The notes: generated by a model from the sequence alone, not told the origin. 64,000 nt of DNA from Bacteroidales bacterium (GCA_030654075.1 JAURYB010000005.1:8732-72731), one strand, 5' to 3'. Positions 18,670 to 44,560 are shown, counted from the first letter of the stretch. Translations and numbers: made by a program.

Positions 18670-19611
18670 TCATTTTTTATTCAAGCTCCATGTAATTGTC
18701 AGATCACCTTGATTGACGGACCCTGAAGACGAATCACTCCGAGTGCTGGTTCCGATGGCGGCATCCACACTCCAGCCACCTAATGGCATAGTTATCTCTG
18801 AGGAAAAACCGCCGCCGCCTTCCAAACTGCCGCTGCATGTGCCATAGGTTTTTACCATTCCCACACTAATCGATGTCTTACCTTCGAAAACAGAAATGCT
18901 CACATCCGTTTGATCGCTGCCTGAAGCAACAGTAGTTGAATTTCCTTCTGCTCCGGTAAGCTGTTCAGAATAGTTTACAGTGCATTGAGCCACATTATTA
19001 TTGACCTCGCACTGGACAGAAAGATCGGACTTGAGGCTGCCACCAGGTCTAGCCGGATCATCAGCATTCAGTAATTTTTCATATGTGTGTTGTTCAATTT
19101 TAATAGTTCCGGTCCATGTTTTTTCGCGGCAGAGCTGGCTATTGTATTGGTATAAATCATCAATAAGTTTTTTCGCGACTCTTTTAGCTGCATCAATTGC
19201 ATCGTCAATGGGCACACTTTCAACAGTCCGGGATATCACATTATTCGGCCCATTTTTCATAATAAATGCCGAGATTGTGGTTGTATTTTCAAGAACAGTG
19301 ACACTAAGACTAACGAGATAGTCGTATTTCATTGCTTCGGCAATGTTCAATAATTGATCCTTATCTTCTACTCCGAGAATTTGTTTTTGTTTTTCCCAAT
19401 CCAGTAGCACCATAGTACTGTATTGGCTTTCTGAACTGGCGCATGGGAATTTTTTTCTAAGCCCATTAAAAAACTCCGAATCAAGGAGGTTTAGGCAACC
19501 AGAATTTGCCTTGGTCTCCGGTGAAAGCATTACGTAGAATTTGGGATCTGCTGCATGCAGGTAGTCGGCCAATATCAGCAACAGGAAAAGAAGGGTTGTT
19601 TTGTTTTGCAT
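18670..19611 (-). CDS. Secreted protein, paralog family B (B0; shared N-terminal domain, divergent C-terminus)
   Basis: N-terminal ~165 aa align to B1-B4 (FYVMLSP..., KKFPCASS, WEKQKQILGVEDKDQLLNIAEAMKYDYLVSLSVTV). The C-terminus is a different Ser/Gly/Thr-rich beta-type region. Confidence 0.6.
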   Translation of the reverse strand: MQNKTTLLFLLLILADYLHAADPKFYVMLSPETKANSGCLNLLDSEFFNGLRKKFPCASSESQYSTMVLLDWEKQKQILGVEDKDQLLNIAEAMKYDYLVSLSVTVLENTTTISAFIMKNGPNNVISRTVESVPIDDAIDAAKRVAKKLIDDLYQYNSQLCREKTWTGTIKIEQHTYEKLLNADDPARPGGSLKSDLSVQCEVNNNVAQCTVNYSEQLTGAEGNSTTVASGSDQTDVSISVFEGKTSISVGMVKTYGTCSGSLEGGGGFSSEITMPLGGWSVDAAIGTSTRSDSSSGSVNQGDLTITWSLNKK

Positions 19612-19618
19612 TTTGCTT

Positions 19619-20737
19619 TTACTTTTGTTTATTTTTATAAATCAAAACCCCCAATTTCTCAATCGGCAGGTTATTAAAAAACAATCCCACAAAATCCGAT
19701 AATCCTTGGTTAGGCTCTATGAATGCCTCAAGTTCCTGCAGGGTGGCGGGCCGGTAATCCCACGACATGTATTGTACTGTTGTTACCGGCAGTGAGCGGT
19801 CCCAGCAAGCCGGGTTAAACTTTACCACGGCTCGGCCTTCGCCACGGGCATTAATAGTCGAAATTCCACACTCTTCAGCCGGACAGGAATATGCCGGAAG
19901 TTTCAGTTCTTCGGCAGTGAAGTTTTCATATTCCTGTTTAATTACCTGGTATAGCCTTGGTTTCATGGTGTGATCAGGGTCGGGATTAAAGTTCATTTTA
20001 GCCCAGCCTGCGACCATCTTTTCGTAATTAATACTGTCAATCTCGTGTTTTACTTTGTAGTACGCCAGCTTGGTTTCCATAATTTCTTTTACTGTTACCG
20101 GAATCCAGATTTCGGGCCTTTCGGGATTGAAAATAAGTAAAGAACCTTTAAACCAGGTTCCTGCATCGGAAGCGTATAACCTCACGCCAGGGGCAATTTC
20201 TTTAATGACAGGCGCTGTGGTATAATATTTTCTGAGATTTTCGCGTGCTTTTTCCAGGGGTTGTTTTAAATGCGGCGGATCGTCGGTTTTAAATTCAGCT
20301 TCATCGAATTGTGTACTGATGTAGTACATCGGGTTGTTGATAATGATTTCTGTTCCGTGGGCAGACCAACCGGTTGCTGTATGTGATACCCCGTTTTCGG
20401 TATAAAAGTGATGAAATGAAATACCGATGGAACCTCGTATTCCATAGTCCTCCATCTTACTTCTTTCATCAAAACAATAGGCTGATAATCCAACCACAGC
20501 ATCAAAACCGGTGGGATAACCAAGCACAGAATCATTCAGGCGCACCCATTCAACAATGGCTGTGAGGTTATTTTTAAAAGTAGTTACATCTACTCCCGGG
20601 CATTTTCCCTGTTGATTATTAAAAACAAACTTACCTGGTTTATCGGGCTGATATTGCATGGATTGGGCCTGAGAAACAGAAACTAACAGGATTAATCCCA
20701 ATACTACGAAACAACCTTTTATAACACTTTTATTCAT
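19619..20737 (-). CDS. Secreted protein, paralog family A (A4)
   Basis: Signal peptide; IFNPERPEIWIPVT, KFNPACWDRSLPVTTVQ. Only 7 nt upstream of B0. Confidence 0.65.
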   Translation of the reverse strand: MNKSVIKGCFVVLGLILLVSVSQAQSMQYQPDKPGKFVFNNQQGKCPGVDVTTFKNNLTAIVEWVRLNDSVLGYPTGFDAVVGLSAYCFDERSKMEDYGIRGSIGISFHHFYTENGVSHTATGWSAHGTEIIINNPMYYISTQFDEAEFKTDDPPHLKQPLEKARENLRKYYTTAPVIKEIAPGVRLYASDAGTWFKGSLLIFNPERPEIWIPVTVKEIMETKLAYYKVKHEIDSINYEKMVAGWAKMNFNPDPDHTMKPRLYQVIKQEYENFTAEELKLPAYSCPAEECGISTINARGEGRAVVKFNPACWDRSLPVTTVQYMSWDYRPATLQELEAFIEPNQGLSDFVGLFFNNLPIEKLGVLIYKNKQK

Positions 20738-20882
20738 TGATAATCATTTTGCGGAAACATTACGAAAGTTAACAATTATATGCTCCACCTCAGATCATAC
20801 CCATAAAATCCATGAAGCTTATTATACTTTAATCCATTTGAATCACTTTATCAAGAAAATTTACCCGTGCTTAATCTACCAT

Positions 20883-22982
20883 TTATGGGAAATCAGGCGT
20901 AATAATACCTGCATCCGAAGTAAGTTCAGGACCGCTTTCCAGGGACATGCGGCCGGCAACTTCTCCTTCGACCAGTCCGCCCAGGCCTGCTTTTACATTA
21001 CTGGTGAATTCTATATTTTTTAGTACATCATCCTGTCCAACAGTTAGTTCAACCATAACGGTTGCTTCAACGGAAACATTCCCACTGCCGTATTCGCCTT
21101 TCACTCCAACACCAACTCCGATCGTGGTTTCATGTTTGTTAAAATCACGGCTTATTGACCAGAGTAATCCTTCGCCACCCGAAAGCTTAACATGATCGCA
21201 ACCCAGCTCGAACGACAAGGCGCCGATTCCCAATTTGATACCATCCTTACCCAAAGGGCAGTCCTTTTCTTTCTTTTTAGGAAGCTTCGAATCGTCGGGG
21301 GCAGCTGAAGGCGGATCAGGTGGTTTGGGCTCAACACATTTCAGCTCGTTGTATTGCTTAGCCGTTTCGGGTAGTCCTGCACCTATTCCGACAACTACTT
21401 TTTCGTGCGTCAGCACCAGCATTTCGCGGTACAGATTTTGTAACTCGTTGAAGCTGGGCGAATAAATTTTCTCCAGGATAGGATTTGTGTACGCGTAATA
21501 ATCCGACACGGCTTCCTTGAATGCACTATATTCAGTTTTATAGGCTTTGAAAGTAGCAGAAAACGTATTATTCAATTCTCCTTTTTGCAGGAGACACATC
21601 TGGTATGTTTCCTGTTCAGCTTCGTACTCAACCTGATCCATCTGGGCCTTTACTTTATTCTGGCAAACTTCATTATCGCCGCAAGCCGTCAGGTCTTCAT
21701 AGAGTTTGAGGAGCTGATCCTGCAGACGTAAAACCTTGTCCAGATGCTGTTGCATGGCAGGAAGGTCTTTTTGCAGAAAGACCGAGTTTTGCTCCAGCAG
21801 TTTGCCTCCATTCGTTATTGCTTTGCCGTAATTGCTGTTTTCACCAAAAAGCAGTTCGGTAACATCCTGAAATTGCATCAGTTCCATGGCAAAATCACGC
21901 TTGAAAACCATAGAATTATCAGAATCTTTCAGCGCTTTTTCCTGTTGCTTTCGCACTACTGCCAGGGCGGACATGTATTCATCGAGCAAGCGTTGCATAC
22001 GTGAGTCAATCCCGTTCAAATAGTTTTGAACCTGCTGTTCTTGCGAAGCGGTCCGTTCCATTTGTTCGTAAACAGGCATCTCCGGCACATTAACTTCGCC
22101 GGCATCCCCTTTTTCCGGTGTAAGCGGTTTCTCTTGCTCGCCTGATGTTTTAGGTGGCTGGGCTGCTTTTGCCTGCTTGTAGGCGGCAAATCCTACAGCA
22201 GAATAATTGTCGGCCAGAGCTTTTCTCAAATATTCTGCTGCTTTTATGTTATTACCTTCGCATTTGGCAATAAGCCCCAAACCCAGGTAAGGCGATGTCA
22301 TTTCGGGCGCAACTTTGAGTGCTTTTTCAAACATTTGCTTTGCAAGAACCTGATAGCCCATTTCGCGGTACACCCAGCCCATATTCAGGATAACAAGCGC
22401 AATGTCAGGCTTGAGTTTGTCGGCATAACGCAGCACCTGTATGGCTTTGGTATATTCACCCATATCCTTTAAGGCAACGCCAAGGTTGTTTGCCGTAAGG
22501 ATGTCATCAGGTTTTTTAGTGGCGCTCCACGAAGCCGTATAAATGGATGCCGAACCGGCACCGGCGATCCTGAACATGGCTCCCATATCGGCTCCATCGG
22601 TAGGTTTTCCGGAAGTCGCCAGCAACTTTTTCAAGCCAGGCAAATCGCCGGACTTTGGCCCATAAACTGCCATAAGCCCTTTAGCCATGGCAACATAGCT
22701 GTCGCGGGTAAGATCAGAAACCTTAAACGGAATTTTTGCAGCAGCCGGACACTCTGATTTATTAGCTCCTGTTTTTGCGGAACCTTGTTGGACGGGGGTG
22801 TTCGCCTGCTTTTCCATCTTTTTATCCATCTCGTCGAACCATTTTTCCATGGTAGCTTCTTCGGCTTCAGTTAGGTCCTCGCCGGCTTTTTCTTTCGCCA
22901 TGATGCGTTTTATTTCATCGGGCTGTGCGAAAGATACAAGACTGAAATTCAGGAAAAGCAAGAAGAGGAGGAAAAACTTCAT
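20883..22982 (-). CDS. Secreted TPR-repeat protein with coiled-coil and beta-rich C-terminal regions
   Basis: Signal peptide MKFFLLFLLFLNFSLVSFAQ. TPR-like stretch ANNLGVALKDMGEYTKAIQVLRYADKLKPD...MGWVYREMGYQVLAKQMFEKALKVAP. Confidence 0.65.
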   Translation of the reverse strand: MKFFLLFLLFLNFSLVSFAQPDEIKRIMAKEKAGEDLTEAEEATMEKWFDEMDKKMEKQANTPVQQGSAKTGANKSECPAAAKIPFKVSDLTRDSYVAMAKGLMAVYGPKSGDLPGLKKLLATSGKPTDGADMGAMFRIAGAGSASIYTASWSATKKPDDILTANNLGVALKDMGEYTKAIQVLRYADKLKPDIALVILNMGWVYREMGYQVLAKQMFEKALKVAPEMTSPYLGLGLIAKCEGNNIKAAEYLRKALADNYSAVGFAAYKQAKAAQPPKTSGEQEKPLTPEKGDAGEVNVPEMPVYEQMERTASQEQQVQNYLNGIDSRMQRLLDEYMSALAVVRKQQEKALKDSDNSMVFKRDFAMELMQFQDVTELLFGENSNYGKAITNGGKLLEQNSVFLQKDLPAMQQHLDKVLRLQDQLLKLYEDLTACGDNEVCQNKVKAQMDQVEYEAEQETYQMCLLQKGELNNTFSATFKAYKTEYSAFKEAVSDYYAYTNPILEKIYSPSFNELQNLYREMLVLTHEKVVVGIGAGLPETAKQYNELKCVEPKPPDPPSAAPDDSKLPKKKEKDCPLGKDGIKLGIGALSFELGCDHVKLSGGEGLLWSISRDFNKHETTIGVGVGVKGEYGSGNVSVEATVMVELTVGQDDVLKNIEFTSNVKAGLGGLVEGEVAGRMSLESGPELTSDAGIITPDFP

Positions 22983-23347: not shown

Positions 23348-23740
23348 CTATTTCTTTGCCGAAGTTGTAAAAGAAATCTCATTACCGTAAATGGTTTCGG
23401 TGCTGGTGGTGATAAACGACCTGATATACAATTTCATACCTGGAGTTAAGCCGGTTAACTGAACATTAAAACTTGGTCCCGGTGCTTTATCGGCTCCATA
23501 AACGGTGTTTTTGGTGGTAGGTCCGGGGCCTTTGCTCAGGCAGATTCCATGTTTGGTTATTGTAACTCCTGCCGCAGTAATTACATACCCGCTTTGGGCA
23601 GAAGTAGCTGTAATGTTTTTAACAGCAGTAGTTTTTACGGATGGAGTTTTTTGCGCATAAATGCCGGAAGAGAGCATTACGGTACTTATTGTTGCTATAA
23701 GTACAACGCATACAGAAATAAGAACTGACTTGTTTTTCAT
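23348..23740 (-). CDS. Small secreted single-domain (FN3-like) protein, paralog 1
   Basis: 130 aa with a signal peptide. The mature domain differs from the 25421 paralog at 2 residues. The pattern HGIC.SKGPGPT...F.V.LTGLTPG..LYIRSF is typical of FN3-like beta-sandwich modules. Confidence 0.65.
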   Translation of the reverse strand: MKNKSVLISVCVVLIATISTVMLSSGIYAQKTPSVKTTAVKNITATSAQSGYVITAAGVTITKHGICLSKGPGPTTKNTVYGADKAPGPSFNVQLTGLTPGMKLYIRSFITTSTETIYGNEISFTTSAKK

Positions 23741-23927: not shown

Positions 23928-24935
23928 TTATTTTACATCAAGCAGTGCCTTCAATGCATTGACATCAAGTTGTTTAACGAACTCACAGTGCCTGCGGTAT
24001 TCGAGATGAGTATCATCACAATTTCTGTCAAATGATTCCGTCAGGGTATGCACTGCTATCAGTTGAATGGAAGTTCGTGGCAACGATTTATCGAAATAAT
24101 CGGGATTAAACCGCAGCAGCGGACTGTCGTTTTCAACTGCAGTAACTCCTGATATGTTTCCTGTGGTAAAATATGCCGGCCCGTTCAGTTGTTCTGTCGA
24201 AAAAACCCCTTTTTCTTTTTCAATTTCTTCAACCACGTATACGTATGAATTGTCCTTTTCCTGAACAATACTAAAGTATTCCGTTATCTGATCGAAAAGC
24301 TCACCACATTTTACGGGAATCCAGTAAGGGCACTTTGGATTTGAAATAATAATTATTCCTGATTGATATGCCGTTACGCCCTCTGCCAGTTCTTTGGCCA
24401 CCAATGGTTTGACAAATATTTTACTCAGATTTTGCGCCGCAATTTCAAGTTTTTCAGGTGTAGGGTGAAGTTCGGAAGCGAGATAGTGCAGGTATTTTTC
24501 GGAAGTTGCTTGTGGCTCGTTCACATGTACGTCGCAACTGGTCACTTCCATGCAGTGTTTCCTGATGTTCCCTTTCTCATCTTTAAATAACGGGCAAAAT
24601 TGTATTGCAATCCGCGACCCGACAATATCATCAGCAAGTGATCGCAGGTGAAAGCCTGCTTTATCATCGGGCCATACCCTCACATTGACAGAAGGTTCAA
24701 TACCAACAGGATTTTTGAGTACCGGATTTTGGTGCAGCGTTTCAATCACAAGGTCAATGTTCTTCTGATATTCAGCCAATTCAGCCGGACTGAGTTTGTA
24801 CTTTTCTATTTCACCCGTAATCTTATGGTGATACGACCATTTTCCCGGTTGATCAGGAAGCCAGATTATTTCGTTTTGCGCATACAACCCTCTCGTCACA
24901 AGAGTAATAAGAAGTAAGTTAAAAAATAGTTTCAT
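23928..24935 (-). CDS. Secreted protein, paralog family A (A5, divergent)
   Basis: Start set at ATG 24935 (MKLFFNLLLITLVTRGLYAQ). Motifs ISNPKCPYWIPVK, RFNPDYFDKSLPRTSIQ. C-terminal LLDVK is shared with A7. Confidence 0.65.
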   Translation of the reverse strand: MKLFFNLLLITLVTRGLYAQNEIIWLPDQPGKWSYHHKITGEIEKYKLSPAELAEYQKNIDLVIETLHQNPVLKNPVGIEPSVNVRVWPDDKAGFHLRSLADDIVGSRIAIQFCPLFKDEKGNIRKHCMEVTSCDVHVNEPQATSEKYLHYLASELHPTPEKLEIAAQNLSKIFVKPLVAKELAEGVTAYQSGIIIISNPKCPYWIPVKCGELFDQITEYFSIVQEKDNSYVYVVEEIEKEKGVFSTEQLNGPAYFTTGNISGVTAVENDSPLLRFNPDYFDKSLPRTSIQLIAVHTLTESFDRNCDDTHLEYRRHCEFVKQLDVNALKALLDVK

Positions 24936-25025
24936 ATTTGATTTCTTAGTAAAAGTTTCAAAATAACTTCCCCAATTACAATTGAATATGTGAACAAATT
25001 TATAACGGTCAGACAAAATACTATC

Positions 25026-25420: not shown

Positions 25421-25813
25421 CTATTTCTTCGCTAAGGTTGTAAAAGAAATTTCATTCCCATAAATAGTTTCGGTGCTGGTGGTGATAAATGACCTGATAT
25501 ATAATTTCATGCCCGGAGTTAAGCCGGTTAGCTGAACATTAAAGCTTGGTCCCGGTGCTTTATCGGCGCCATAAACAGTGTTTTTAGTGGTAGGACCAGG
25601 GCCTTTGCTCATGCATATTCCATGTTTTGTAATGGTAACTCCTGCTGCTGTAATTACATATCCGCTTTGAGCAGAAGTAGCTGTGATGTTTTTCACAGGA
25701 TTAGTTTTGACAGATGGTGCTTTTTGTGCATTAATGCCGGACGAGAGCATAACGATGCCAATTGTTGCGGTAAGTACAACGCATAGAGAAAAAAGGACTG
25801 ATTTGTTTTTCAT
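25421..25813 (-). CDS. Small secreted single-domain (FN3-like) protein, paralog 2
   Basis: Start set at ATG 25813 (MKNKSVLFSLCVVL...). Near-identical mature domain to 23348-23740. Confidence 0.65.
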   Translation of the reverse strand: MKNKSVLFSLCVVLTATIGIVMLSSGINAQKAPSVKTNPVKNITATSAQSGYVITAAGVTITKHGICMSKGPGPTTKNTVYGADKAPGPSFNVQLTGLTPGMKLYIRSFITTSTETIYGNEISFTTLAKK

Positions 25814-25895
25814 AACATAGTTGGTTAAAGGGTTAAAAATAAATCTGTTTTTACTGTCAATCAAAGTACTACTGTTATTTTATTGGATATTTTTT

Positions 25896-26213: not shown

Positions 26214-26693
26214 CTATTGTTTGATTATTTTGTATCCTGCATACGTTTTATTTGTAACATCTTTGATTAATACCCAATATATACCTGGGGATAAATGGCT
26301 TACATGAATCTCGGCTTTTAGTTCATCGGTTATTTTATTTTGAATCAATTTCCCAAACAAATCAGAAATTGATATATCATATTTCGATTCATTTTCAAAA
26401 CTAATTGTTAATAAATCTTCTGTCGGATTGGGAAATATACTTACACCTGCCAGTTTGGTGAGTTCTTCTGTTCCCACAGTATTAAACATATCTGAATTTA
26501 TAAACCCCTCAGAAATGCCAAAAGAGCCAGTAGTTTTTTCCTGAACAGCAACTTCTCCAATGGTATAAATCATTTTAGTAGTTCCGCTCTGGGTAGAAGT
26601 TCCTCCACTATCTATACTTGATTTTTTAATTCCCACCTGGCCAAACACGGTAAGACTACAAACCAAGGCTATAAAGGTTATAAAATTTCTCAT
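26214..26693 (-). CDS. Small T9SS C-terminal-sorting-domain protein
   Basis: 159 aa with a signal peptide. C-terminus SIFPNPTEDLLTISF...SISDLFGKLIQ...LSPGIYWVLIKD is Por-secretion-tail-like. Confidence 0.7.
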   Translation of the reverse strand: MRNFITFIALVCSLTVFGQVGIKKSSIDSGGTSTQSGTTKMIYTIGEVAVQEKTTGSFGISEGFINSDMFNTVGTEELTKLAGVSIFPNPTEDLLTISFENESKYDISISDLFGKLIQNKITDELKAEIHVSHLSPGIYWVLIKDVTNKTYAGYKIIKQ

Positions 26694-26709: not shown

Positions 26710-28215
26710 CTATTTTTTATACACTACAAAGTTGAAAAAAGAATCAGCCAATGTTCCGGAAAGATTCCATGTAAATATGTCAAAATAATTATCGGAAGGA
26801 CTGTATGTCAATATTTTAGGACTTGATGTATCCAATATATTTCCCACAACTACATACGCACTTGCACTCAAGCCTGTGGTAAATGTGATCCGATAAGTAC
26901 CTGTACTTTGTTTGGCAACGCTAAATCCTGCAGAACAACCGTTTGAAACAGCACCATTCGTATTTACATTGCCATAGATATAGGCTTTCATATCAGCCTC
27001 GCCTCCAACTTTGGATTTGAATTTGCCTTCCAAATATAAATCACCAACAAAATAACCGGCATAACTGCCTGTTTTGGTAGCATTGGCATAAACTGCCATG
27101 TGATAGCCCCCAGCAGTACTCGGTATTAATGAATATACTCCATATTTATTCCCAGAACCCGATCCATTTAAATAAGTAGAGACTCCATAGTGACTCCCAC
27201 CTCCGCTAACACTAATATTTTGGTAAGATCCAAATTGACTTCCTGTTCCGGAACCTGTTAAAATATTGTATTCTCCATAATTAGTTCCACCTCCGCTTCC
27301 TGATAGAGCATTTTTAATCCCAAAATGCTCGCCGCTGCCGCTACCAGTAAGTTCATTACTCACTCCATAATGGGTTGCATCATTTGAATTATAGATATAT
27401 TGATACGCGCCAATTTGTTCTCCGGTTCCAGTACCAAATAATTCATTGTAAGTTCCCCTATGTATACCACTACCAGTTCCAAGCAATGAATTTCTGCTAC
27501 CATAATGCAAACCATTGCCAGAGTTAGTAATCCAGTTTAAAGTTCCATATTGAATTCCTGTACCTGTTCCATATAACTCATTATAATTTCCCGTATTAGC
27601 TCCGGAACCGGTTCCGGATACTAAACTTTGCAGTCCTCTTTTGGCTGAGGCCGAAACCGTAGCATTAAAAGCACTTAAAGCTGTCAGAGTATTGTTAGCG
27701 GCAGTTACCTGTAATTGAGCATCATATGTTTCGCTGCCAATACCAACCTTGCCCATATGATAAATATCATCGGCATTAATTGTTGCCTTGAGAGTTGTGC
27801 CCGATTTGTAAAAATCATGGTCGTTGGCATCGAGAGCTTTTGCAGCAATTTTAGCATAAGGCACATAACGCATAACGGTAGTACCCATATCGACAAAACC
27901 ACCTCCGCTGTTAACTTCCACTTTAAGTGATTGAGGCAGGCTCCAGTTTATTGCCGCGAAAACTCCGAAAATTGATGTTCCTTCACCTATGTTGGCAATC
28001 ACGATACCATTTATATCGGTTACGGTATTGATGTGTTCCTCCTGGTAGACCATGGTGGTGCCGTTCTGCAAAATAGTAAACCGCAGAAAAACAACCTGGT
28101 TATACAAAATATTCCCATTGCTGGTAATTACGGCTTTATAACTAATGCCTTGTTGTGCATAAAGGGTGATTCCTAATATAGTGAGAAAAAAACCAAGAAA
28201 AAGTTTGAATTTCAT
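26710..28215 (-). CDS. Secreted Gly-rich repeat (solenoid / tail-fibre-like) protein
   Basis: Signal peptide, then a QQGISYKAVITSNGNIL... N-terminal module. This is followed by ~10 repeats of about 20 aa (YG..N.L.G(S/T)G(S/T)G). Confidence 0.6.
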   Translation of the reverse strand: MKFKLFLGFFLTILGITLYAQQGISYKAVITSNGNILYNQVVFLRFTILQNGTTMVYQEEHINTVTDINGIVIANIGEGTSIFGVFAAINWSLPQSLKVEVNSGGGFVDMGTTVMRYVPYAKIAAKALDANDHDFYKSGTTLKATINADDIYHMGKVGIGSETYDAQLQVTAANNTLTALSAFNATVSASAKRGLQSLVSGTGSGANTGNYNELYGTGTGIQYGTLNWITNSGNGLHYGSRNSLLGTGSGIHRGTYNELFGTGTGEQIGAYQYIYNSNDATHYGVSNELTGSGSGEHFGIKNALSGSGGGTNYGEYNILTGSGTGSQFGSYQNISVSGGGSHYGVSTYLNGSGSGNKYGVYSLIPSTAGGYHMAVYANATKTGSYAGYFVGDLYLEGKFKSKVGGEADMKAYIYGNVNTNGAVSNGCSAGFSVAKQSTGTYRITFTTGLSASAYVVVGNILDTSSPKILTYSPSDNYFDIFTWNLSGTLADSFFNFVVYKK

Positions 28216-32125: not shown

Positions 32126-32208
32126 AGTCCGGAATATCAGTTTAATTCTCAAACAGCCAATAAATTATACTGCATTATTAAAGGAAGGATGATCTTAAAA
32201 ACCTCTTT

Positions 32209-34701: not shown

Positions 34702-35609
34702 TACTGTACAATTTTGCAGTTTGGTAACTGTTGTTTAATTCTGTTAATTTCATCGGTTGTAATCTGTGTTTTTGCAATACCAAGCGTATCCAGCTTATTC
34801 AGTGTATTGATCGTGGGCAGCAAAGCAATAACAGGATTCATTTCGATGTAGAGTGATTTTAATTGAGAGATTGAGCTGATTTCTGCTGGCAGCTGGTTGA
34901 TTTTGTTATTATAAAGTGCCAGAAAATTCAACTCACGAAAATTACCGATAGCTTTGGGAACCTTGGTTACAAAATCCTTAAAATTAATGATGTACAATTG
35001 TTGCAAGGGGTAATGTGCCGCTTTGGCAAACAGGTTTTCGAGATTGACAGCTGCGCCGTTTTTCCCTCCGGTAATGACCAGGGTTTTTATCGATCTGTAA
35101 TTCTCCATTTGGTCGATGACTAACTGAACAGTTGCCGACGACATATCAATGTACAATAAAGTCATTTCATTAAGGTATTCCCGATTTTTCACAGTCGGGT
35201 TTTCGTCTTCCTTATATTCCTCCGCAATCTGTTCCCTGAGCGGTTCGGCCAAATCCATTTTACCCTCGTCTCCTTCGCGAACGATTTTCATCATCTGGCT
35301 CGATAATTGAGTGCTGTAATCATCCATTTCCTGCTGCATTTCGGTTTTTCCCTCAGGAGTATTACCTTCTTGCAGTTGTTGAGCGGGAGCTTTGCTGTTG
35401 CGAATGGCCTGTGTAAGTTTAGCCGCTAATCCTTCAAGCTTTACATTGGCTTCTTTAGCAGCTGCAGGATCGTTCCAGTTGGTCGACCGCCGTATTGCAG
35501 CCATTTGCTGCTTTATCTGTGCGGCTTCATTGTTGGCGTTTTGGGCCAGCAACATCATATTTAGCACGAGGAAAACGAAAAGTAGAAAGAAGCGTTTCAT
35601 AAATGACAA
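34701..35609 (-). CDS. Secreted leucine-rich-repeat protein, paralog family C (C2), module 2
   Basis: Signal peptide; IRRSTNWNDPAAAKEANVK; LRRs LNFLALYNNKINQLPAE. Ends QQLPNCKIVQ. 71 of 102 C-terminal residues are identical to C1 by hand count. Confidence 0.75.
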   Translation of the reverse strand: MSFMKRFFLLFVFLVLNMMLLAQNANNEAAQIKQQMAAIRRSTNWNDPAAAKEANVKLEGLAAKLTQAIRNSKAPAQQLQEGNTPEGKTEMQQEMDDYSTQLSSQMMKIVREGDEGKMDLAEPLREQIAEEYKEDENPTVKNREYLNEMTLLYIDMSSATVQLVIDQMENYRSIKTLVITGGKNGAAVNLENLFAKAAHYPLQQLYIINFKDFVTKVPKAIGNFRELNFLALYNNKINQLPAEISSISQLKSLYIEMNPVIALLPTINTLNKLDTLGIAKTQITTDEINRIKQQLPNCKIVQ

Positions 35610-35611: not shown

Positions 35612-36652
35612 TTAGCCGATCGTTAAGTCTTCAGGTCCATACAGGTTATACTTGTAAGCACTCCTGAGCCGATTTATAAAACCTGAAACATTGCCCAATC
35701 CCATTTGACCGGGTTCAGGACTGTTGTTAACTCCGGTTTGCATTTTCATCACCTCGTTTGTTAATTTTTCAAGACGATAATATGCCGGCATAGATGATTG
35801 GATAAACGATTTGTATTCGTCAAGCACACTAATATACTTAGGAGTTTGTACATTACAGTAGTTTACCTTTGCTAAATACATCTCACTTCGCAATGCAACA
35901 AGTATTTGTTGATCAGGACCCCTTCCAGCTTTCGCGGTTTCGTTATAAAGATCAGCAATCTTCTCCCTTATTCCCTCAATTATGGCCAATAAATTTTTCC
36001 CTTCCTCATCTTCATCTATTTCTGCGAACTTTTGCATATATTTATTTTGTTGCGCATTCAGGCTATCCGTGAGTTGTTTATACTTTTTTTGCAGGTTGTG
36101 TTTTTGCATTTCTTTCGCATTCTGATCCTTGTATTTCTGAGGATCTGCATTCACTTCTGCCTGCGCTTCTACAGCATAGCCGGTTGCCCAGGCTCTCTGT
36201 CCCGCCGAATCCGCGGTTTTCAGGTTATCAAGCTCCGCAACCGAAATATTCATCTTTTGCTGAATCATTTGATCGGTAATGGCTTTTCTTTGAGCTTCAT
36301 AGGCTTTCGCCTGTTCACCGGTGGCTCCTTTGCTCTGTTTTTCGAGTGCCATTAATTGTTGAATTAATTCAGGAGAAATACCGGATGTTTTGACCGTATT
36401 GAACATTACCTGCTGATTCTTGGCATCCGATTCCGCATCATTATTTTCGCTTCTGCGGTCCAGTTCGTTTTGCAATAACTCACTAATCTCATCAAGTTTG
36501 GCGATGAATTCATCTTCTTCCTGCTTATTATCATCGCTGCAAATGTTTCCGGGAACTGAAGGAAGCATGCCCATAAATGCTTCGGGCCGGACCTGCGCAT
36601 CGATTACTGTCCAGAAAAGCAGAAATACTGTGATTGAAAATACCTTTTTCAT
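35612..36652 (-). CDS. Secreted coiled-coil protein, paralog family D (D2), module 2
   Basis: Signal peptide MKKVFSITVFLLFWTVIDAQ. Gln/Lys/Ala-rich helical body with DQMIQQKMNISVAELDNL. Its stop lies 2 nt before the C2 start. Confidence 0.65.
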   Translation of the reverse strand: MKKVFSITVFLLFWTVIDAQVRPEAFMGMLPSVPGNICSDDNKQEEDEFIAKLDEISELLQNELDRRSENNDAESDAKNQQVMFNTVKTSGISPELIQQLMALEKQSKGATGEQAKAYEAQRKAITDQMIQQKMNISVAELDNLKTADSAGQRAWATGYAVEAQAEVNADPQKYKDQNAKEMQKHNLQKKYKQLTDSLNAQQNKYMQKFAEIDEDEEGKNLLAIIEGIREKIADLYNETAKAGRGPDQQILVALRSEMYLAKVNYCNVQTPKYISVLDEYKSFIQSSMPAYYRLEKLTNEVMKMQTGVNNSPEPGQMGLGNVSGFINRLRSAYKYNLYGPEDLTIG

Positions 36653-36914: not shown

Positions 36915-38039
36915 TTACTGTCGTGTAAGCGAGAAATTGATTTTTGCCGTTGCCTTCTCTTTTCCCTGCGACAGATCTTTGGTTTCATCCTGATTCAGCA
37001 CTTTGTCTTCAGCCGTTCCTTTGTAAGGCCCCAAAACAACTTTCAGAGGGACATCAATCTCGTTATTTCTGGGTTCTTCAGGTTCCTCATTTTTCCTGGC
37101 GGCACAGGGAGCATTGATTTTTTTATCGATAGTGGTTTTCATATTGCCTTTTTGCGAAGTGGCCTCAATTAAGATATTGTAAGTTCCGTCTTCCAAAAAC
37201 ACAATTTTTATACGGCAATCGGCTACTTTTTGGCCTTCTGAAACGCTTTCGTTTGACAAGCCACTGGCCTTTGCCTCAACATCCTTTTTTTCGTTGATCT
37301 GGGCAATTGTTTTTTGACCGTCGGGACAGATGTAGCAGGGATTGTTAATGGTTGTTTCAGTTTTTTCATTCATATCGTAGGTCACATTGCCATCACCTTT
37401 CCTAAGGCCGTTTTTGTTGAGTTTCCAGTTCAGATTCATTTTTGTTGTTATCCTGGTCTGGATTGCAATCATTCCGCCATCGCATGGAATTGAGCTGCTG
37501 GTTGTTTCTTCTTTTTCACTTTCAACTTCGATGGTGAGTTTACCTTCGTAAGCGCAGATTTCGTATTCTTTCAGTTGTTTTACAAGGTCTTTTGAAACTT
37601 TTTCAGCATTCTCAGATGCCTGGCCAATTGGTCCGTGTGCATCGGTGCGTGCAATAGTATTCGCCTTTTTTACGTCCATACAGAATGCTGAGAGGTAGAG
37701 CTGGTCACCAAGAACATCGGCTTTGAATTTAATCAGATAGTCGCTACCGATCGCCCCGGCAATATTCTGAAGTTGATTATCATCAATGGCACCTAGCAAC
37801 TGTCGCTTTCTTTCCCATCGCAGCATTTCGTATAGCGAACCCCTGTCAAGAATTTCAACACAGGGGAAGGCCTCCTTTAAATCATTAAACAATTTTGTTT
37901 CAAAGGCAATACAAATTGTTTTTGCATCAACCAAATTGCTTTTTGTCTCAGAAACAATAAATATTTTGGGGTTGGCCGCATTTACATTTCCAGCCAAAAT
38001 TCCGGAAATAAAAACGATGAGTAAAATGTATTGTTTCAT
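36915..38039 (-). CDS. Secreted protein, paralog family B (B3), module 3
   Basis: Start set at ATG 38039 (MKQYILLIVFISGILAGNVNA), giving an ATGA overlap with the C3 stop. Motifs ERKRQLLGAID, SDYLIKF, YEICAYEGK, CYICPDG, LGPYKGTAEDKVL. Confidence 0.7.
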   Translation of the reverse strand: MKQYILLIVFISGILAGNVNAANPKIFIVSETKSNLVDAKTICIAFETKLFNDLKEAFPCVEILDRGSLYEMLRWERKRQLLGAIDDNQLQNIAGAIGSDYLIKFKADVLGDQLYLSAFCMDVKKANTIARTDAHGPIGQASENAEKVSKDLVKQLKEYEICAYEGKLTIEVESEKEETTSSSIPCDGGMIAIQTRITTKMNLNWKLNKNGLRKGDGNVTYDMNEKTETTINNPCYICPDGQKTIAQINEKKDVEAKASGLSNESVSEGQKVADCRIKIVFLEDGTYNILIEATSQKGNMKTTIDKKINAPCAARKNEEPEEPRNNEIDVPLKVVLGPYKGTAEDKVLNQDETKDLSQGKEKATAKINFSLTRQ

Positions 38040-39016
38040 TGTTTTAGAATTATGCAATTTGGCAATGACTTTTTGATTTTATCTAATTCTACCTCAACTA
38101 TTTTTGTTTTTGCAACACCCAATGTATCCAGGCTGGTAAGTGTATTTATTACCGGGGTTATGGTTGAGATAGGATTGATGTCGAGGTACAGATTTTTCAG
38201 AGATGTGAGAGATCCGATTGCAAGTGGTAATTTTTCGATACTGTTGTTAAAAAGTCCTAGTTCGGTAAGTTTTTTGAAATTTACGATAGTCTCTGGAATT
38301 GATTTTACGTATTGTTTAAAATTGATAACATATAAAACTTCGAGTGGATAGTTTTTTGCCCTGTCGAATAAATCATTGAGATTAACTGGTGAACCATTTT
38401 TGCCGCCTACAATGATGAGGGTGCTTATGGATTTGTAGTTTTGCATCTGGTCAATAATTAGTTCGATAGTTTTCGTCGACATATCGAGGCATAAGGTTTT
38501 TGTTTCTTCCAGTGTAAGTTCGTTTGCTGCTGAACCAGTTTCATCTTCTTTAAATTCCGCTACAATTTCCTCCCGCAAAGGCTTGGCCAATAGAACCGGG
38601 GCGCTTTTCCCCGAAGCCCCTGCTTCCCAAAGTTGGGTGTACACATCTACCTTTTGTTTGCCCATTTCCATCTGAAGCTCGCTCATTTTATTGCCGTCGG
38701 AATTGCTGTTGCCTGATCCGTCCTGATTTTGACTTCCTGGTGATCCCTGACCGCTGGAGGAAGCTGAAGTTGCTGCAACAAGCTGGCCCATCAAAACCTT
38801 AATTTGTTCGTTGGCTTTTTTAGCTTCAGCGGGATTGTCCCAATTGGTCGTTTGGCGTATTTTAGCCATCTGCTGCCTGATTTCGGCAACTTTATTCTGA
38901 CTGGTATTTTGGCAGAACGCAGCATCTGAAATCAGGAAAAACATCGAGCACAAAACTATTTTCGATATGAAACATCGAAAGAGTGCTAAAATTCTTTTGT
39001 TCAGGGAGTTGTCCAT
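38036..39016 (-). CDS. Secreted leucine-rich-repeat protein, paralog family C (C3), module 3
   Basis: IRQTTNWDNPAEAKKANEQIK; Ser/Gly/Gln-rich linker; LRRs LTELGLFNNSIEKLPLAI..LKNLYLDINPIS. Ends KSLPNCIILKQ. Confidence 0.75.
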   Translation of the reverse strand: MDNSLNKRILALFRCFISKIVLCSMFFLISDAAFCQNTSQNKVAEIRQQMAKIRQTTNWDNPAEAKKANEQIKVLMGQLVAATSASSSGQGSPGSQNQDGSGNSNSDGNKMSELQMEMGKQKVDVYTQLWEAGASGKSAPVLLAKPLREEIVAEFKEDETGSAANELTLEETKTLCLDMSTKTIELIIDQMQNYKSISTLIIVGGKNGSPVNLNDLFDRAKNYPLEVLYVINFKQYVKSIPETIVNFKKLTELGLFNNSIEKLPLAIGSLTSLKNLYLDINPISTITPVINTLTSLDTLGVAKTKIVEVELDKIKKSLPNCIILKQ

Positions 39017-39021: not shown

Positions 39022-39987
39022 TTATTTTAACACATAGTTAAAAGCTCCTGACAAACGAGACAAGTAATTCTTTATGTATTTAAAATATTCAATCTCAGGA
39101 CCGATGGGAGTATCAATTTTTATCGGCTGCAAATTGGCAACCATCCGGTTGAGGTCGGCAATGCGGATGTAATCGGGGTATGACGCTTTCAGGTCGGCAT
39201 ATTGCATGTTTAATACTTTCCAGTAAAGTGGTGTGTACTTTTCGCAGTATTTTTCTTTTTCTTTTTTTATGAGCGATGCAATAGAATCCATTTCATATCC
39301 CTGACCAACATCAACACCGGTCATCGCTGTAATTTTACTATTCCACACCCCGATTTTTTGAAGGGTCGCCATTCGCTCCGGATCAGTATCAATTTTAATA
39401 TATTCATTCTCAATATTGTTTCGGCGTTCATCTACCTGTGACTTTAAATTTTGTAGCTGCTGGGCTAATTCTCCAGGGTTCGAACCGGTTTTTTGTTGTT
39501 CACTTATCCCCTGGCTGGACTGGGCCATGGTATAACTTTCAGCGCCATATGCTTCGGCCCAGGCTTTTTTACCTTCTTCGCTCATGCCCTGCATATTTTT
39601 GATTTCACCAGTCGAAATATTGGTTTGCTGCATCATCATTTTATCGGCTAATGCAGCTTTGTCAGCTTCTGACATTTTTTTATTGCTTTTCATTTTCTGA
39701 ACTTCTTCATCCGATAGGCCATATTGTGAAGCCATTTGATTTATCGCATTTTCTTTAGCCGGATTCCCATCAACTTTGCTTTGGCTTTTCATTTTTTTTA
39801 TCTGATCGTTTATCTCATCTTTCAGGGTTTTTACCTGGGCAACAAACGTTTCCCTGGTTTCGGGTTTAATTTTGCACAATTCATCTGGAAGCGAAGGAAT
39901 ATTATCGACAAATTGCTGGGTCTGGAACTGGGCGTTGCAAACAAATGTTGTAAGCAACATGATAAGCAGTATAAGCTGTGTTTTCAT
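39022..39987 (-). CDS. Secreted Met-rich coiled-coil protein, paralog family D (D3), module 3
   Basis: Signal peptide MKTQLILLIMLLTTFVCNAQ; DKMMMQQTNISTGEIKNMQGMSEEGKKAWAEAY. Its stop lies 5 nt before the C3 start. Confidence 0.65.
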   Translation of the reverse strand: MKTQLILLIMLLTTFVCNAQFQTQQFVDNIPSLPDELCKIKPETRETFVAQVKTLKDEINDQIKKMKSQSKVDGNPAKENAINQMASQYGLSDEEVQKMKSNKKMSEADKAALADKMMMQQTNISTGEIKNMQGMSEEGKKAWAEAYGAESYTMAQSSQGISEQQKTGSNPGELAQQLQNLKSQVDERRNNIENEYIKIDTDPERMATLQKIGVWNSKITAMTGVDVGQGYEMDSIASLIKKEKEKYCEKYTPLYWKVLNMQYADLKASYPDYIRIADLNRMVANLQPIKIDTPIGPEIEYFKYIKNYLSRLSGAFNYVLK

Positions 39988-40051
39988 ATTTTCGTTGCTT
40001 TTAGTATTTCAAACCTGATTGTTCGATTGATAATTAATCTGGAACCGTAAT

Positions 40052-40636: not shown

Positions 40637-40719
40637 TTCAGATTATTTAATGATGTTAAATGAAAAGAGCAGAAAAAGGGAAAGGCACCACTTGATTATG
40701 CCTGCTCACTTGATGCGTA

Positions 40720-42003
40720 TCAGAGTTTAATAAACTCCACCCTCCTGTTCATCGCTTTATTGGAAGGTGTATCATTAGGTGCAACCGGCTGGCTTTCGCC
40801 CATTCCATCGGTTATAAGGCGTTCGCCATTTACATTGAATGTTTTTACAAGCTCGCTTTTAACCGAAGCGGCCCGGCGTTTCGAGAGATCCAGGTTGGCA
40901 GCATCGGCACCATCGGCATCGGTATGTCCGACTATTTTCACTTTTACATCAGGTACCTCATTCAGGATTTTAGCAATGTCTTTCAGGGTTCCGTAAGATT
41001 CAGGCTTAACCACATCCTTATTTACATCGAAATAAATGCCGTAGGTTACAAGTTTGCCTTCGGTAAGCAGTTTGTTTCGGGTATCGGGCGAAGCTGTAGT
41101 AATTTTCACATTGGTGATATACGAACTGCAGGAAGCTCCCCTATATAGTTGAAATGCCAGCCGTGTAAATTTACTGTCCTCATACAGGTTGGTAGGCATA
41201 TCCAATACCTTTTCCCCCTGATGATAAATACGAACCCGCCGGTTCTGAACCCAGATAATTACGTGATTAACCTTCTCTTCTACAACAGGTTTTAATTGTG
41301 AGTTGCCGGTTATTTTGGAGCTCCCGGCTTTTATGCCTTGTGATTCCCAGCCAGTTTTTGCCACACTTATAATCAATCCGGTTTTACAGGCAAACGGATC
41401 GCTCATTTCCTTGAACCCGTTTTCGCCATAAATAGCCACGCCAACTGCATATCGTGGGGCTCCTTTTTTGGGCACAATATCGAATTCAAGAATAAAATTT
41501 TTCGGGAACTCAATCGGTTTCAGGAACCACCAGTTACCTTCAGTTGCATTCAGATTTAACCAGTTACCGGGGGCAACATTTAATGTATTGATCTCCCCTG
41601 ATTTATTGGTTGTCCAGAGTGCAGGGAAATCGCCCACAGCATCCTGGCTGAAATCTTCGTACAATAAAACTTTATCGCCAGGAACAAAATCATAATTTGA
41701 AAAGGATTGCAGTGACTGCTGATTCTGCTTTCCTTCAGTTTTACTGCCGGGTGCTGTAGTGGTTGTTCCGGTATTTTTCTGATCTGGCTTTTGTGTTGCA
41801 GGAGTATTAGATTTTTTAAAATTAGGATTAAGGCTATCCTCAATTACATCAAGCCCTTTATCAATACCCCGGTCAATTTTACGGTTAACCCTGTTAACAA
41901 CTTTGTTTTCAATACGTTGCGGAACATTTATGATCTGCGCCGAAACCTCAATCCACAAACTTAAAAAAAAGAATGTCAGGACTGTTACAACAAGTGCTTT
42001 CAT
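40720..42003 (-). CDS. OmpA-family protein (novel N-terminal region + OmpA/MotB C-terminal peptidoglycan-binding domain), paralog 1
   Basis: C-terminus YFDVNKDVVKPESYGTLKDIAKIL...VKIVGHTDADGADAANLDLSKRRAASV...NRRVEFIKL. N-terminal amphipathic IINVPQRIENKVVNRVNRKIDRGIDKGLD. Confidence 0.8.
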   Translation of the reverse strand: MKALVVTVLTFFFLSLWIEVSAQIINVPQRIENKVVNRVNRKIDRGIDKGLDVIEDSLNPNFKKSNTPATQKPDQKNTGTTTTAPGSKTEGKQNQQSLQSFSNYDFVPGDKVLLYEDFSQDAVGDFPALWTTNKSGEINTLNVAPGNWLNLNATEGNWWFLKPIEFPKNFILEFDIVPKKGAPRYAVGVAIYGENGFKEMSDPFACKTGLIISVAKTGWESQGIKAGSSKITGNSQLKPVVEEKVNHVIIWVQNRRVRIYHQGEKVLDMPTNLYEDSKFTRLAFQLYRGASCSSYITNVKITTASPDTRNKLLTEGKLVTYGIYFDVNKDVVKPESYGTLKDIAKILNEVPDVKVKIVGHTDADGADAANLDLSKRRAASVKSELVKTFNVNGERLITDGMGESQPVAPNDTPSNKAMNRRVEFIKL

Positions 42004-42296
42004 GATCCTAAAGATTAATGAGTTAGAAATTGAATTGATATGTTTGGTATGAACAAATTTACATCAGGTCATTTCGTATCACATCCCTGTTTTAAGGGGT
42101 TTTGCAGCAGGACTTGTTATATATCTTAGTGATGTAAATATAGGGAAATTTCGCTGAAAATATTCTTTTCTCCTGGAAAAAATTCTTTTTTAATATGTCG
42201 TCCTGAAACCGGATAGTAAGAGTTTAAATAGTAAAACAGGTTGAAGATAATGAATTACTTTGATTTTGAAAATGGCATCTATTTGTGATATTTATT

Positions 42297-43349
42297 TTAC
42301 TTTACATCCAGCAATTCTCTTAAATCACTTCCTTTCATCCCCTGAATAAATTCCCAAACCCTGTGGGCATTAATTTCTCCCCATTCGGGATAATCAGCAT
42401 GACCTTCCATGGTAATGGTGATCAATTGTACACTTGTTCGCGGAAGTGCCGGATCAAAATAATTCGGATTAATTTTGTAAAGTGCCTTTGTGGAGTCCTC
42501 TTCTACGGTGCATATTCCGGTAAGGGGTCTTTGTGAATTTCCATTGATGTAAGCAGGCATCATCATCATCTCGGGAGGAATAGCATCTATTTCACTTTTT
42601 AAGGCATCTATCACCATTTGAGGAATTAAGCCCTCCTTCAGTGATGCATTATAATAGATCATCATCCTGGCAATGTATTCTTTGTTTGTAACAGGGAACC
42701 ATAGAGGGCGATCGTTGCGGGCAACAACAATCCGGTTCTCGTAATACCAATTATAAAGAAACACACCACTGCCAATATCCATTAATTCTTTAGGCAGACA
42801 AAAAATCTCTTTGAATTGATTAAGGGCTTTCTTGTCATCCAGTTTATCAAAATTCATGGCTGTTTCGTAAACAGCAGATTCATCATTGGTTCTCAGTTGA
42901 ATATAGGATACCTCCGTACAGGCATTATCAATCTTTCCATTATTATGGATAAGGTTGCAAAATGGGACATAGATTTCAGTCTTCACTTTTTCGGTTGCTG
43001 CCAGTGCATGATCATAATGATTGTAAACAGCTCTGGCTTGCGCATTCAGGTTCACCCCAAGCGGATTCTGAGCAATGGGTTGCTGATGCAGATAGCTAAC
43101 CAATTTTTCGGTAGTGGCATGGTATTTCTCCAATTCAGTCGCAGTCATTTTGTAATAGCGCGCGCCAAACCACTCCGCCGACTCGTTATTATTGGTATAA
43201 ATCCACTTACCGGGATAGGTCGCTAAGTCGCTGTTGTCCTGCGAAAAAGAAAGGAACGAAATACTTGAGATGAGAAGGAGTATAAATATTCGCCTTGGGA
43301 GATTGAATCGGGATTTTTTTTTCAAAACGTCAGAGTTTATTTTTACCAT
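42297..43349 (-). CDS. Secreted protein, paralog family A (A7, divergent)
   Basis: VARNDRPLWFPVT, KINPNYFDPALPRTSVQ, C-terminal LLDVK. 14 nt downstream of B4. Confidence 0.65.
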   Translation of the reverse strand: MVKINSDVLKKKSRFNLPRRIFILLLISSISFLSFSQDNSDLATYPGKWIYTNNNESAEWFGARYYKMTATELEKYHATTEKLVSYLHQQPIAQNPLGVNLNAQARAVYNHYDHALAATEKVKTEIYVPFCNLIHNNGKIDNACTEVSYIQLRTNDESAVYETAMNFDKLDDKKALNQFKEIFCLPKELMDIGSGVFLYNWYYENRIVVARNDRPLWFPVTNKEYIARMMIYYNASLKEGLIPQMVIDALKSEIDAIPPEMMMMPAYINGNSQRPLTGICTVEEDSTKALYKINPNYFDPALPRTSVQLITITMEGHADYPEWGEINAHRVWEFIQGMKGSDLRELLDVK

Positions 43350-43363
43350 ATTCTGGTTTTTTC

Positions 43364-44560
43364 CTATCTGCTAAACGAGAAATTAACTTTGCTGGTGTAG
43401 GTTGTTTGGCCGCCATCAATTTTATTGTTATCGGTCTCAGTTTTCGTGTCCTTCAAGGTTTTATCAGTGGGTTTTCCTTTAAACGGCCCCCAGGTACTTT
43501 TAACTGATACAATATATCCATAGGTTATTTTTTCATCGGGCTCAGGATCTTTGCGGCATTCGGTAATATTGGTTACTTTTCTCGATTTCACATATTCGCC
43601 TTTCTGGGATACGGCTTTTACCACTACCATATAAGTGCCCTGAATGGTATCAAATTCAATACTGACTTCAGCAGGGAACTTCTTTGATGTATTTGAACCT
43701 TCTGGCAACGGAGCTAATCCATCCACTTTAAATTCCTCCCTGGTAACCACCGTATAATCAGAACTGGTATAATTTGTCATATCAATTCCAGTTACATCTT
43801 TTCCTTCGTATGTCCAACAATTCACACAGCCCGATTTAAACTCGCGGTTCATTTTCTCATCAACACCACTGGCATGCATTGATCCGGTTGCCTGAATCCG
43901 ACCTTTTTTTTCCAGAACCACTTCTTCAAGATAACTGTTGCTTTTCTTTATGGTTCCTCTGAAATATCCCGAATTGTCCTTTCCGCAACGGCTTCCGGTT
44001 TCGTGAATCTCGTCACTGGTTCTTTCTGTGGACATGCTAATCGTCCCTAAGTAAGGGCATATTCCTCTGGCTAACAGATCCCTCGCCAAATCCTGTGCAT
44101 ATTTTCGCATTGCCTGAATAAAATGATCTTTGTCGGTTGTATTAATCCCCCTGGTAGCCACCTTTGAATTTCTTGTGATTGAGGTTGAACCCGTCAGATA
44201 ATAATCATCTCCAATCCTATACCCGCCCAAAGAAATAAGATAATCGCATCCCATTGCTCCGGCAATCATCGAAAGATTACCTTCTATGTCATTGGTTAAA
44301 ATAGCTTTTGTACGATCAAGTATCATCATTTGCTTTATACCTTGATAGGTCATAAAATCAGCACAGGTAATCTGTTGCTTTAATTCATCCTGCACCTGAT
44401 CTTCAAAAAGTCCTGATATATCGTCGGCAGAAAAACTCCCTAAACCATCTTTTGCTGAACCTATAATCAGTATTTTAGGTCTTACAATCTCGGGTAATTT
44501 TTGGCCAAATGAAACAATACCAAACCAGCACAAAAAAATAATTAACAATGAAGATCTCAT
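43364..44560 (-). CDS. Secreted protein, paralog family B (B4), module 4
   Basis: Signal peptide; CDYLISLGG, GICPYLG, CVNCWTY, ITECRKD, WGPFKGKPTDKTL. Its ATG overlaps the C4 stop (ATGA). Confidence 0.65.
   Translation of the reverse strand: MRSSLLIIFLCWFGIVSFGQKLPEIVRPKILIIGSAKDGLGSFSADDISGLFEDQVQDELKQQITCADFMTYQGIKQMMILDRTKAILTNDIEGNLSMIAGAMGCDYLISLGGYRIGDDYYLTGSTSITRNSKVATRGINTTDKDHFIQAMRKYAQDLARDLLARGICPYLGTISMSTERTSDEIHETGSRCGKDNSGYFRGTIKKSNSYLEEVVLEKKGRIQATGSMHASGVDEKMNREFKSGCVNCWTYEGKDVTGIDMTNYTSSDYTVVTREEFKVDGLAPLPEGSNTSKKFPAEVSIEFDTIQGTYMVVVKAVSQKGEYVKSRKVTNITECRKDPEPDEKITYGYIVSVKSTWGPFKGKPTDKTLKDTKTETDNNKIDGGQTTYTSKVNFSFSR

Follow-up and report, generated by a model that had tools for sequence, protein, structure and literature searches.

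The small α/β domains of TolB (its N-terminal part), LpoB, PelC, PqiC and CsgG form a fold group that provides the Gram-negative envelope with key adaptors and rings, which serve in outer-membrane tethering, in activation of peptidoglycan synthases, and in export of polysaccharides, lipids and amyloid. TolB has an ordinary signal peptide and is not lipidated. LpoB, which activates PBP1B, is lipid-anchored in the outer membrane and has one globular domain and a long disordered linker. PelC is a single-domain lipoprotein of Pel exopolysaccharide export, encoded alongside the PelB porin in the pel operon, and forms a dodecameric ring around PelB, and PqiC-like proteins and GNA1162 are lipoproteins of MCE transport systems or DUF799 operons. 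One conserved α/β core is common to the PqiC-, LptE-, PelC- and CsgG-like lipoproteins (2026 JBC paper, PMC13631591), and the rings described are an octamer for PqiC-like proteins (PqiC/PA3214), a dodecamer for PelC and a nonamer for CsgG (PMC13631591). The LpoB C-terminal domain has been likened to TolB-N (PMC7267771). What, then, might be the role of five proteins, B1 to B5, whose N-terminal domain is predicted to adopt this fold and which are encoded in a 64,000-nucleotide stretch of DNA from a Bacteroidales bacterium (GCA_030654075.1, JAURYB010000005.1:8732-72731; the window, with positions counted from its first letter)? On balance, we consider it probable that B has no enzymatic role and serves as a docking or scaffold subunit in a periplasmic complex tethered to peptidoglycan, following a logic like that of TolB, Pal and CpoB.

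The five B proteins share an N-terminal domain, as the original prediction had it, and its length is about 140 aa: B1 and B5 align with an E value of 9e-33 and 41% identity over residues 21-161 and only there, the B5 tail diverging afterwards. B1 to B4 are alignable end to end with 26-38% identity among them, and the match between B1 and B4 (E 2e-22) spans the full length. B1 is identical (100%) to the NCBI entry 'MAG: hypothetical protein Q7U54_00620 [Bacteroidales bacterium]' (P0001; MAG, metagenome-assembled genome), and the nearest orthologues elsewhere have 71% identity to B2 (P0117), 56% to B3, 91% to B4 (P0160) and 72% to B5. With closer orthologues found elsewhere for every B paralogue of the window, these are subfamilies of long standing and not recent copies. 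The motifs that had been listed for the N-terminal domain are present to different degrees. After the signal peptide the first strand reads FYI, IFI or ILI; DYL(V/I)(S/K)(L/F) is found in all five proteins and E(K/R)x(K/R)QLLG in four, the QLLG helix being degenerate in B4, but AFC is present in only three. The C-terminal motifs listed for B1 to B4 are carried by all four proteins, namely (Y/G)(E/I)IC(P/A)(F/Y), C(Y/V)xC and GP(F/Y)(P/K)G...D(K/E)(V/T)L, with EGTCDN in B1 and B2; the first of these had been given as ICP(F/Y), but B3 reads ICAY.

In an alignment of 80 B homologues, six cysteines are invariant in all 80 (B1 C58, C161, C187, C238, C241 and C315), so that the expected conservation of the cysteine pattern extends to the wider family. 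Also invariant are G165, G220, F284 and G339-P340-x-x-G343, and C118, the cysteine of the AFC motif, is present in only 50 of the 80. C58 and the cysteine just past the last N-domain helix are kept in 88 of 98 relatives, including B5 and proteins that consist of the N-terminal domain only. Since the C58/C161 pair is retained in relatives with a different C-terminus it is assigned to the N-terminal module, and C187, C238, C241 and C315 are specific to the canonical C-terminal domain. Judged from sequence, all five paralogues, like the family at large, have signal peptides of the signal-peptidase-I type. None of B1 to B5 has a lipobox, in agreement with the original prediction, and in a family-wide scan a plausible one occurs in only about five of 197 full-length members. 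These are P0076, P0093, P0136, P0141 and P0188, from other metagenomes, with the lipobox located where the signal peptide ends; it may be a remnant of an origin among the lipoproteins of the fold group.

A word-indexed search recovered 113 B homologues, every one annotated as hypothetical and lacking a Pfam domain. When 1.84 billion representatives of clusters at 50% identity were searched exhaustively with a hidden Markov model (HMM), 128 matched the B family at E <= 1e-30, rising to 278 at E <= 1e-10 and to 1510 at E <= 1e-3. Among the HMM matches listed, the weaker ones cover profile positions 1-160 only, which indicates that the N-terminal domain is a module also joined to other C-termini, as in B5. 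There is no significant match of B to any Pfam or NCBIfam family, only sub-threshold ones, and no enzyme or defence family in Pfam, NCBIfam or PADLOC matches it.

The operon context, which the original prediction did not include, is more informative than the fold match itself. All B genes of the window belong to a cassette repeated on the minus strand, which in full runs OmpA-like protein, MORN protein or small lipoprotein (in some cases), A, leucine-rich repeat (LRR) protein, B and D. The A-LRR-B unit occurs three times between 30111 and 39987, and a second set consisting of OmpA-like protein, LRR, B4 and D occupies 42297-46980. About 30 MAG loci of Bacteroidota and Ignavibacteriota keep the order OmpA-like, A, LRR, B. 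These loci were collected by exact-protein look-up and by scanning one genome per species with 20 closer B sequences, and BLASTP classification of all their open reading frames shows this order in nearly every one, with D next in about half. The species-level scan gave 28 loci, all in MAGs, from Bacteroidales, Prolixibacteraceae, Marinilabiliaceae, Mariniphaga, records labelled Chitinophaga, and Ignavibacteriales. LRR and B meet in an ATGA, where the stop of the one and the start of the other overlap, at 29 of 31 junctions elsewhere (loci L001-L031) and at three of the four in the window (31244-31247, 38036-38039 and 44557-44560), the fourth reading TAATG. Given such overlaps, the probable start of B3 is the ATG at 38039, within the ATGA shared with the LRR3 stop, rather than the TTG at 38057. 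Retention of this translational coupling across two phyla argues for stoichiometric co-production, and hence for a likely physical pairing of LRR and B. The only Pfam families recognized among the B neighbors are OmpA_C, LRR, TPR and MORN. PADLOC found no defence family among the operon proteins apart from generic OmpA_C/ZorB similarity, and a literature search found no published account of the operon.

The OmpA-like protein, encoded by the first gene of the operon, consists of a signal peptide, an amphipathic helix, a linker, a β domain of about 200 aa without PDB or Pfam match, and an OmpA_C peptidoglycan-binding domain. The position of the coiled-coil A protein upstream of LRR is conserved across loci. 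The A proteins are exported and helical; they contain 4-7% methionine, partly in runs (for example MAMAMMNQNMNM in A1), and share a cysteine at position 38. Methionine-rich stretches of this kind recall periplasmic Cu/Ag-binding or chaperone-like segments. The D proteins, of which there are seven in the window, are exported, 330-372 aa long and share a 'PDKPGKW' N-terminus; their 319 homologues are all hypothetical. An AlphaFold2 model of D is of high confidence (predicted local distance difference test, pLDDT, 91.6) and has no significant fold match in the PDB (best E 0.12, LptE-like), so D may represent a new fold.

Taken together, these features could be viewed as parts of one envelope assembly. 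B would be made in translational coupling with the LRR protein encoded upstream, exported through Sec, and would remain non-lipidated in the periplasm. Its N-terminal domain (residues ~22-160) would be closed by the C58-C161 pair, and this TolB-N/LpoB/PelC-type domain together with a rigid, cysteine-stapled β domain would bind the LRR partner. Coiled-coil A and the OmpA-like protein would then link the B-LRR pair into a peptidoglycan-tethered envelope complex. B has no catalytic signature and is taken to be non-enzymatic.

To place the N-terminal domain structurally, an AlphaFold2 model of B1 was built from the 80-sequence alignment (mean pLDDT 86.8, predicted template-modelling score 0.74), in which residues 25-155 are modelled as a β-α-β-α-α-β-β-β-α domain. 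The model was compared with the PDB by Foldseek, and the top 50 matches were considered. The best is TolB (7mx5, E 2e-6, probability 1.00). The PelC dodecamer (5t10 and 5t11) follows at E ~5e-4 and probability 1.00, with a target-normalized template-modelling (TM) score of 0.48-0.55 and a root-mean-square deviation (rmsd) of 4.3-5.8 Å over ~145 columns. The LpoB C-terminal domain (4q6l and 4q6z) matches at E 5e-4 to 3.5e-3 and probability 1.00, and all LpoB entries together (4q6l, 4q6z and 2mii) range from E 5e-4 to 5e-2 at probabilities of 0.96-1.00. GNA1162 (DUF799; 4hrv, E 7.5e-4) and PqiC-like XCC0632 (DUF330; 2iqi, E 4e-3) were also found at probability 1.00, and the matches to these two proteins together span E 7.5e-4 to 2e-2. 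The five best-scoring families all belong to one recognized periplasmic fold group. The prediction of a CsgG/LpoB/TolB-N-like fold is supported, with TolB and LpoB among the best matches, but CsgG itself is absent from the top 50. A match to chain B of the Flavobacterium johnsoniae BAM complex (probability 0.63, TM 0.23; PMC12611786) was dismissed as β-rich noise. Since structural similarity was found and the cysteines are conserved, the fold and cysteine predictions are both supported, and B is placed in the same fold group and the same compartment as TolB, LpoB and PelC, not as a proven homologue.

The C-terminal domain has no confident structural match in the PDB or BFVD by Foldseek. In the B1 model residues 164-376 are all-β, with three strands of ~23 residues, one of 17 residues, and then shorter ones. 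PDB matches to this part are outer-membrane barrels, secretins and pore formers at probabilities of 0.2 or lower and TM ~0.1, which we read as noise generic to long hairpins, and the low-TM, barrel-like matches to the viral structures of BFVD were taken as noise as well. The family-wide hydrophobicity pattern has the middle of the long strands polar on both faces. A membrane barrel was rejected on this pattern, which argues for a soluble domain that is partly a single-layer sheet. When all 80 members were compared with Pfam at a permissive threshold, sub-threshold matches at residues ~261-302 recurred to Y_Y_Y (34/80, best E 6.7e-5), PKD (13/80) and InlK_D3 (9/80), suggesting an immunoglobulin (Ig)/PKD-like sandwich segment at ~255-310 that fits the 'DGTYTLKVKA' motif. 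In the modelled topology C187 is at the end of strand 1 of the long meander, C238 and C241 end strand 3 at the same tip, and C315 comes after a later strand, so that these four residues plausibly come together, forming either two disulfides or a Cys4 metal site. On the favored reading, the C-terminal domain is family-specific and pinned by C187, C238-x-x-C241 and C315.

The long hairpins also bear on a different role, in which the N-terminal domain would homo-oligomerize beneath the outer membrane as a ring of the CsgG/PelC/PqiC type, with the C-terminal hairpins as a conduit, making B a component of a secretion or transport channel. The fold group contains three ring formers (the PelC 12-mer, the PqiC/PA3214 8-mer and the CsgG 9-mer), the hairpins of B are unusually long, and the low-probability Foldseek matches fall on secretins, outer-membrane barrels and pore formers. 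However, these matches do not exceed a probability of 0.2 at TM ~0.1, strands that are polar on both faces at mid-strand are not membrane-compatible, B is without a lipid anchor, CsgG is missing from the top 50 matches, and TolB and LpoB, the best and third-best matches, are monomeric adaptors. Nor is there a conserved cargo or inner-membrane partner gene in the operon across the ~30 loci. A ring of this kind is therefore rather unlikely.

It could also be asked whether LRR, B and the expanded D proteins act outside the cell, as a variable set of surface or secreted ligand-binding proteins or adhesins whose expansion reflects diversification toward external ligands. In favor are the LRR and Ig/PKD-like motifs, the threefold A-LRR-B cassette, the seven D genes of the window, and the cargo genes of the type IX secretion system (T9SS) interleaved with them. 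Yet B, LRR, A and D have neither a T9SS C-terminal domain nor a lipoprotein export signal, the operon begins with a gene whose product has a peptidoglycan-binding OmpA_C domain, which puts the system in the periplasm, and the paralogues are old subfamilies with orthologues of their own and not products of recent diversification, all of which makes an extracellular role unlikely. That the N-terminal domain is a generic two-layer α/β sandwich whose resemblances say nothing about function or location is quite improbable, for although sequence searches revealed no homology, the TM-scores are moderate at rmsd values of 4-11 Å, and unrelated α/β folds (a ribosome hibernation factor and YjjX) appear lower in the Foldseek list, the five best families all belong to one periplasmic fold group at probability 1.00, B is exported and encoded with an OmpA_C protein, which is the cellular setting of the families of that group, and the top match, TolB, has the overall layout of B (signal peptide, α/β, β, no lipid).

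Several points weigh against B as a docking or scaffold subunit of a TolB-Pal-CpoB-like complex. The TM-scores to targets of ~135 aa are moderate (0.42-0.55), and sequence-level homology to TolB_N, LpoB or CsgG was not found with Pfam, NCBIfam or hhalign. The sole Pfam match to the fold group is FlgT_M, a TolB-N-like domain, at E 0.043 in 2 of the 80 B members. Comparison of the B profile with Escherichia coli TolB, LpoB and CsgG by hhalign gave probabilities below 1%, with single-sequence targets and hence low sensitivity, and the local alignment that pairs LLG...DYLVSL of B with ALGIDAVVVGQV of TolB is not significant. The B-family profile had no match among PDB sequences, and a profile of divergent N-terminal domains, built to reach annotated families, had three matches, none informative. 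Without sequence-level homology, common ancestry with TolB, LpoB or CsgG is unproven. In addition, the interactions of B with LRR, with the OmpA-like protein and with itself are drawn from gene order only, the cysteine pairing is argued from topology and not from distances in the model, any TolB-Pal-like contact by B would have to differ because B has no β-propeller, and there are no TolQRA-like genes in the window or in the ~30 related loci.

Under the docking or scaffold reading, B extends the fold group to non-lipidated, cysteine-stapled, two-domain proteins coupled to an LRR partner, and to the Bacteroidota and Ignavibacteriota, a lineage with envelope machines unlike the proteobacterial paradigm. 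It also brings the fold into a tightly conserved operon, the proteins of which are otherwise without annotation. B has no Pfam or NCBIfam model, and a family definition would annotate hundreds of genes now listed as hypothetical. For a new envelope complex, made up of B, LRR and the OmpA-like and coiled-coil proteins, the operon is a good candidate, its function being judged from architecture and gene order only. More speculatively, and with considerable doubt, the operon might encode an undescribed peptidoglycan-anchored periplasmic machine that is specific to Bacteroidota and Ignavibacteriota and consists almost wholly of unannotated families, in which an oligomeric B scaffold is paired 1:1 with LRR and D contributes a new fold, either as a motor-less analogue of TolB-Pal-CpoB or as a new ring.

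Table 1. Positions in the window of the B genes, their parts, the operon partners and the neighboring genes
Feature	Position	Strand	Description
B1	30111-31247	-	378 aa; signal peptide, TolB-N/LpoB/PelC-like domain (predicted), Cys-stapled all-β domain (predicted)
B1 signal peptide	31185-31247	-	residues 1-21, cleaved after ATA, no lipobox; read from sequence
B1 N-terminal α/β domain	30768-31184	-	residues 22-160; LLG and DYLVSL motifs
B1 C58 codon	31074-31076	-	inside N-terminal domain
B1 C-terminal all-β domain	30114-30767	-	residues 161-378; GPFPG turn
B1 C161 codon	30765-30767	-	start of C-terminal part
B1 C187 codon	30687-30689	-	C-terminal domain
B1 C238 codon	30534-30536	-	C-terminal domain
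B1 C241 codon	30525-30527	-	C-terminal domain
B1 C315 codon	30303-30305	-	C-terminal domain
B2	33547-34701	-	384 aa; paralogue along full length
B3	36915-38057	-	380 aa as listed (TTG at 38057)
B4	43364-44560	-	398 aa; most divergent of the full-length paralogues
B5	18670-19611	-	313 aa; N-terminal domain with C58/C161-equivalent pair; different, Ser/Gly/Thr-rich C-terminus
LRR1	31244-32152	-	exported, helical with leucine-rich repeats; Pfam LRR_14/LRR_4; stop overlaps B1 start
LRR paralogues	34701-35609, 38036-39016, 44557-45426	-	
A1	32209-33156	-	exported, Met-rich coiled-coil type; no recognized Pfam family
A paralogues	35612-36652, 39022-39987	-	
OmpA-like protein	40720-42003	-	operon gene 1; Pfam OmpA 1.5e-22 and PDB OmpA_C matches
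OmpA-like paralogue	45664-46980	-	
D1	29089-30081	-	'PDKPGKW' family; directly downstream of B1
Other D paralogues	42297-43349, 19619-20737, 23928-25016 (D4), 11036-12058, 13647-14657, 14905-15936	-	
Sensor kinase	47120-49063	+	TPR-HisKA_3; signal-like N-terminus, ~350-aa TPR region, transmembrane segment 388-408
Response regulator	49218-49844	+	LuxR/GerE type; second gene of two-component pair
TPR protein	20883-22982	-	699 aa, exported; upstream of D3 and B5
Small exported proteins	23348-23740, 25421-25864	-	119/130 identical; around D4
T9SS cargo	12048-13490	-	Por_Secre_tail by Pfam; RHS/YD repeats
Predicted T9SS cargo	26214-26693, 26710-28215	-	judged from C-terminal sequence
861-aa exported protein	15948-18533	-	directly downstream of B5; no Pfam family

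Several other genes of the window (Table 1) recur near B elsewhere. The two-component pair is transcribed divergently from the OmpA-like paralogue, and the same pair adjoins the operon in loci L002, L004 and L035, not in most others; it is a possible regulator of the operon. Homologues of the exported tetratricopeptide repeat (TPR) protein are also found inside the operon in L004, L018 and L022, which makes it a recurrent accessory component. The near identity of the two small exported proteins indicates a recent local duplication, and homologues of this pair adjoin B or D in L018 and L028. Predicted type IX secretion cargo genes are interleaved with the D and B genes. Viewed by eye, the 861-aa protein combines segments that look Ig-like (Big_2-type) with a helical region and a linker rich in proline, and its homologues lie downstream of B in L001, L016, L027, L029 and L031.

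How does B compare with the described members of the fold group? CsgG enters the comparison through the α/β core that it has in common with PqiC- and PelC-like proteins (PMC13631591), but B is without a lipobox, without csgE/F-like neighbors, and without membrane-compatible hairpins inserted in the α/β domain. PqiC-like XCC0632 (DUF330) and GNA1162 (DUF799) have their core α/β fold in common with the B model, although B is neither lipidated nor encoded in such an operon. PelC gives the best target-normalized TM-score and has a similar periplasmic setting under the outer membrane, whereas B lacks a lipobox, has two domains, and has no pel genes nearby. The α/β fold of LpoB is similar to that modelled for the B N-terminal domain; unlike LpoB, B has neither lipobox nor linker, its N-terminal domain follows directly after the signal peptide, and it possesses an extra β domain of ~220 aa. 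TolB differs from B in its six-bladed, Pal-binding β-propeller, in place of which the C-terminal domain of B has ~23-residue strands and an Ig-like segment, with no PD40/WD40 Pfam matches. There are no tolQRA genes near B, and B has six invariant cysteines and a coupled LRR partner. Nevertheless, TolB is the best structural match of B (E 2e-6), and like B it consists of a signal peptide and an α/β domain followed by an all-β domain, with no lipid. In E. coli, where the gene neighborhood was checked, TolB is encoded beside the OmpA_C-type Pal and the coiled-coil CpoB, and B too is encoded with an OmpA_C protein and a coiled-coil protein. In layout, TolB is the known protein closest to B.

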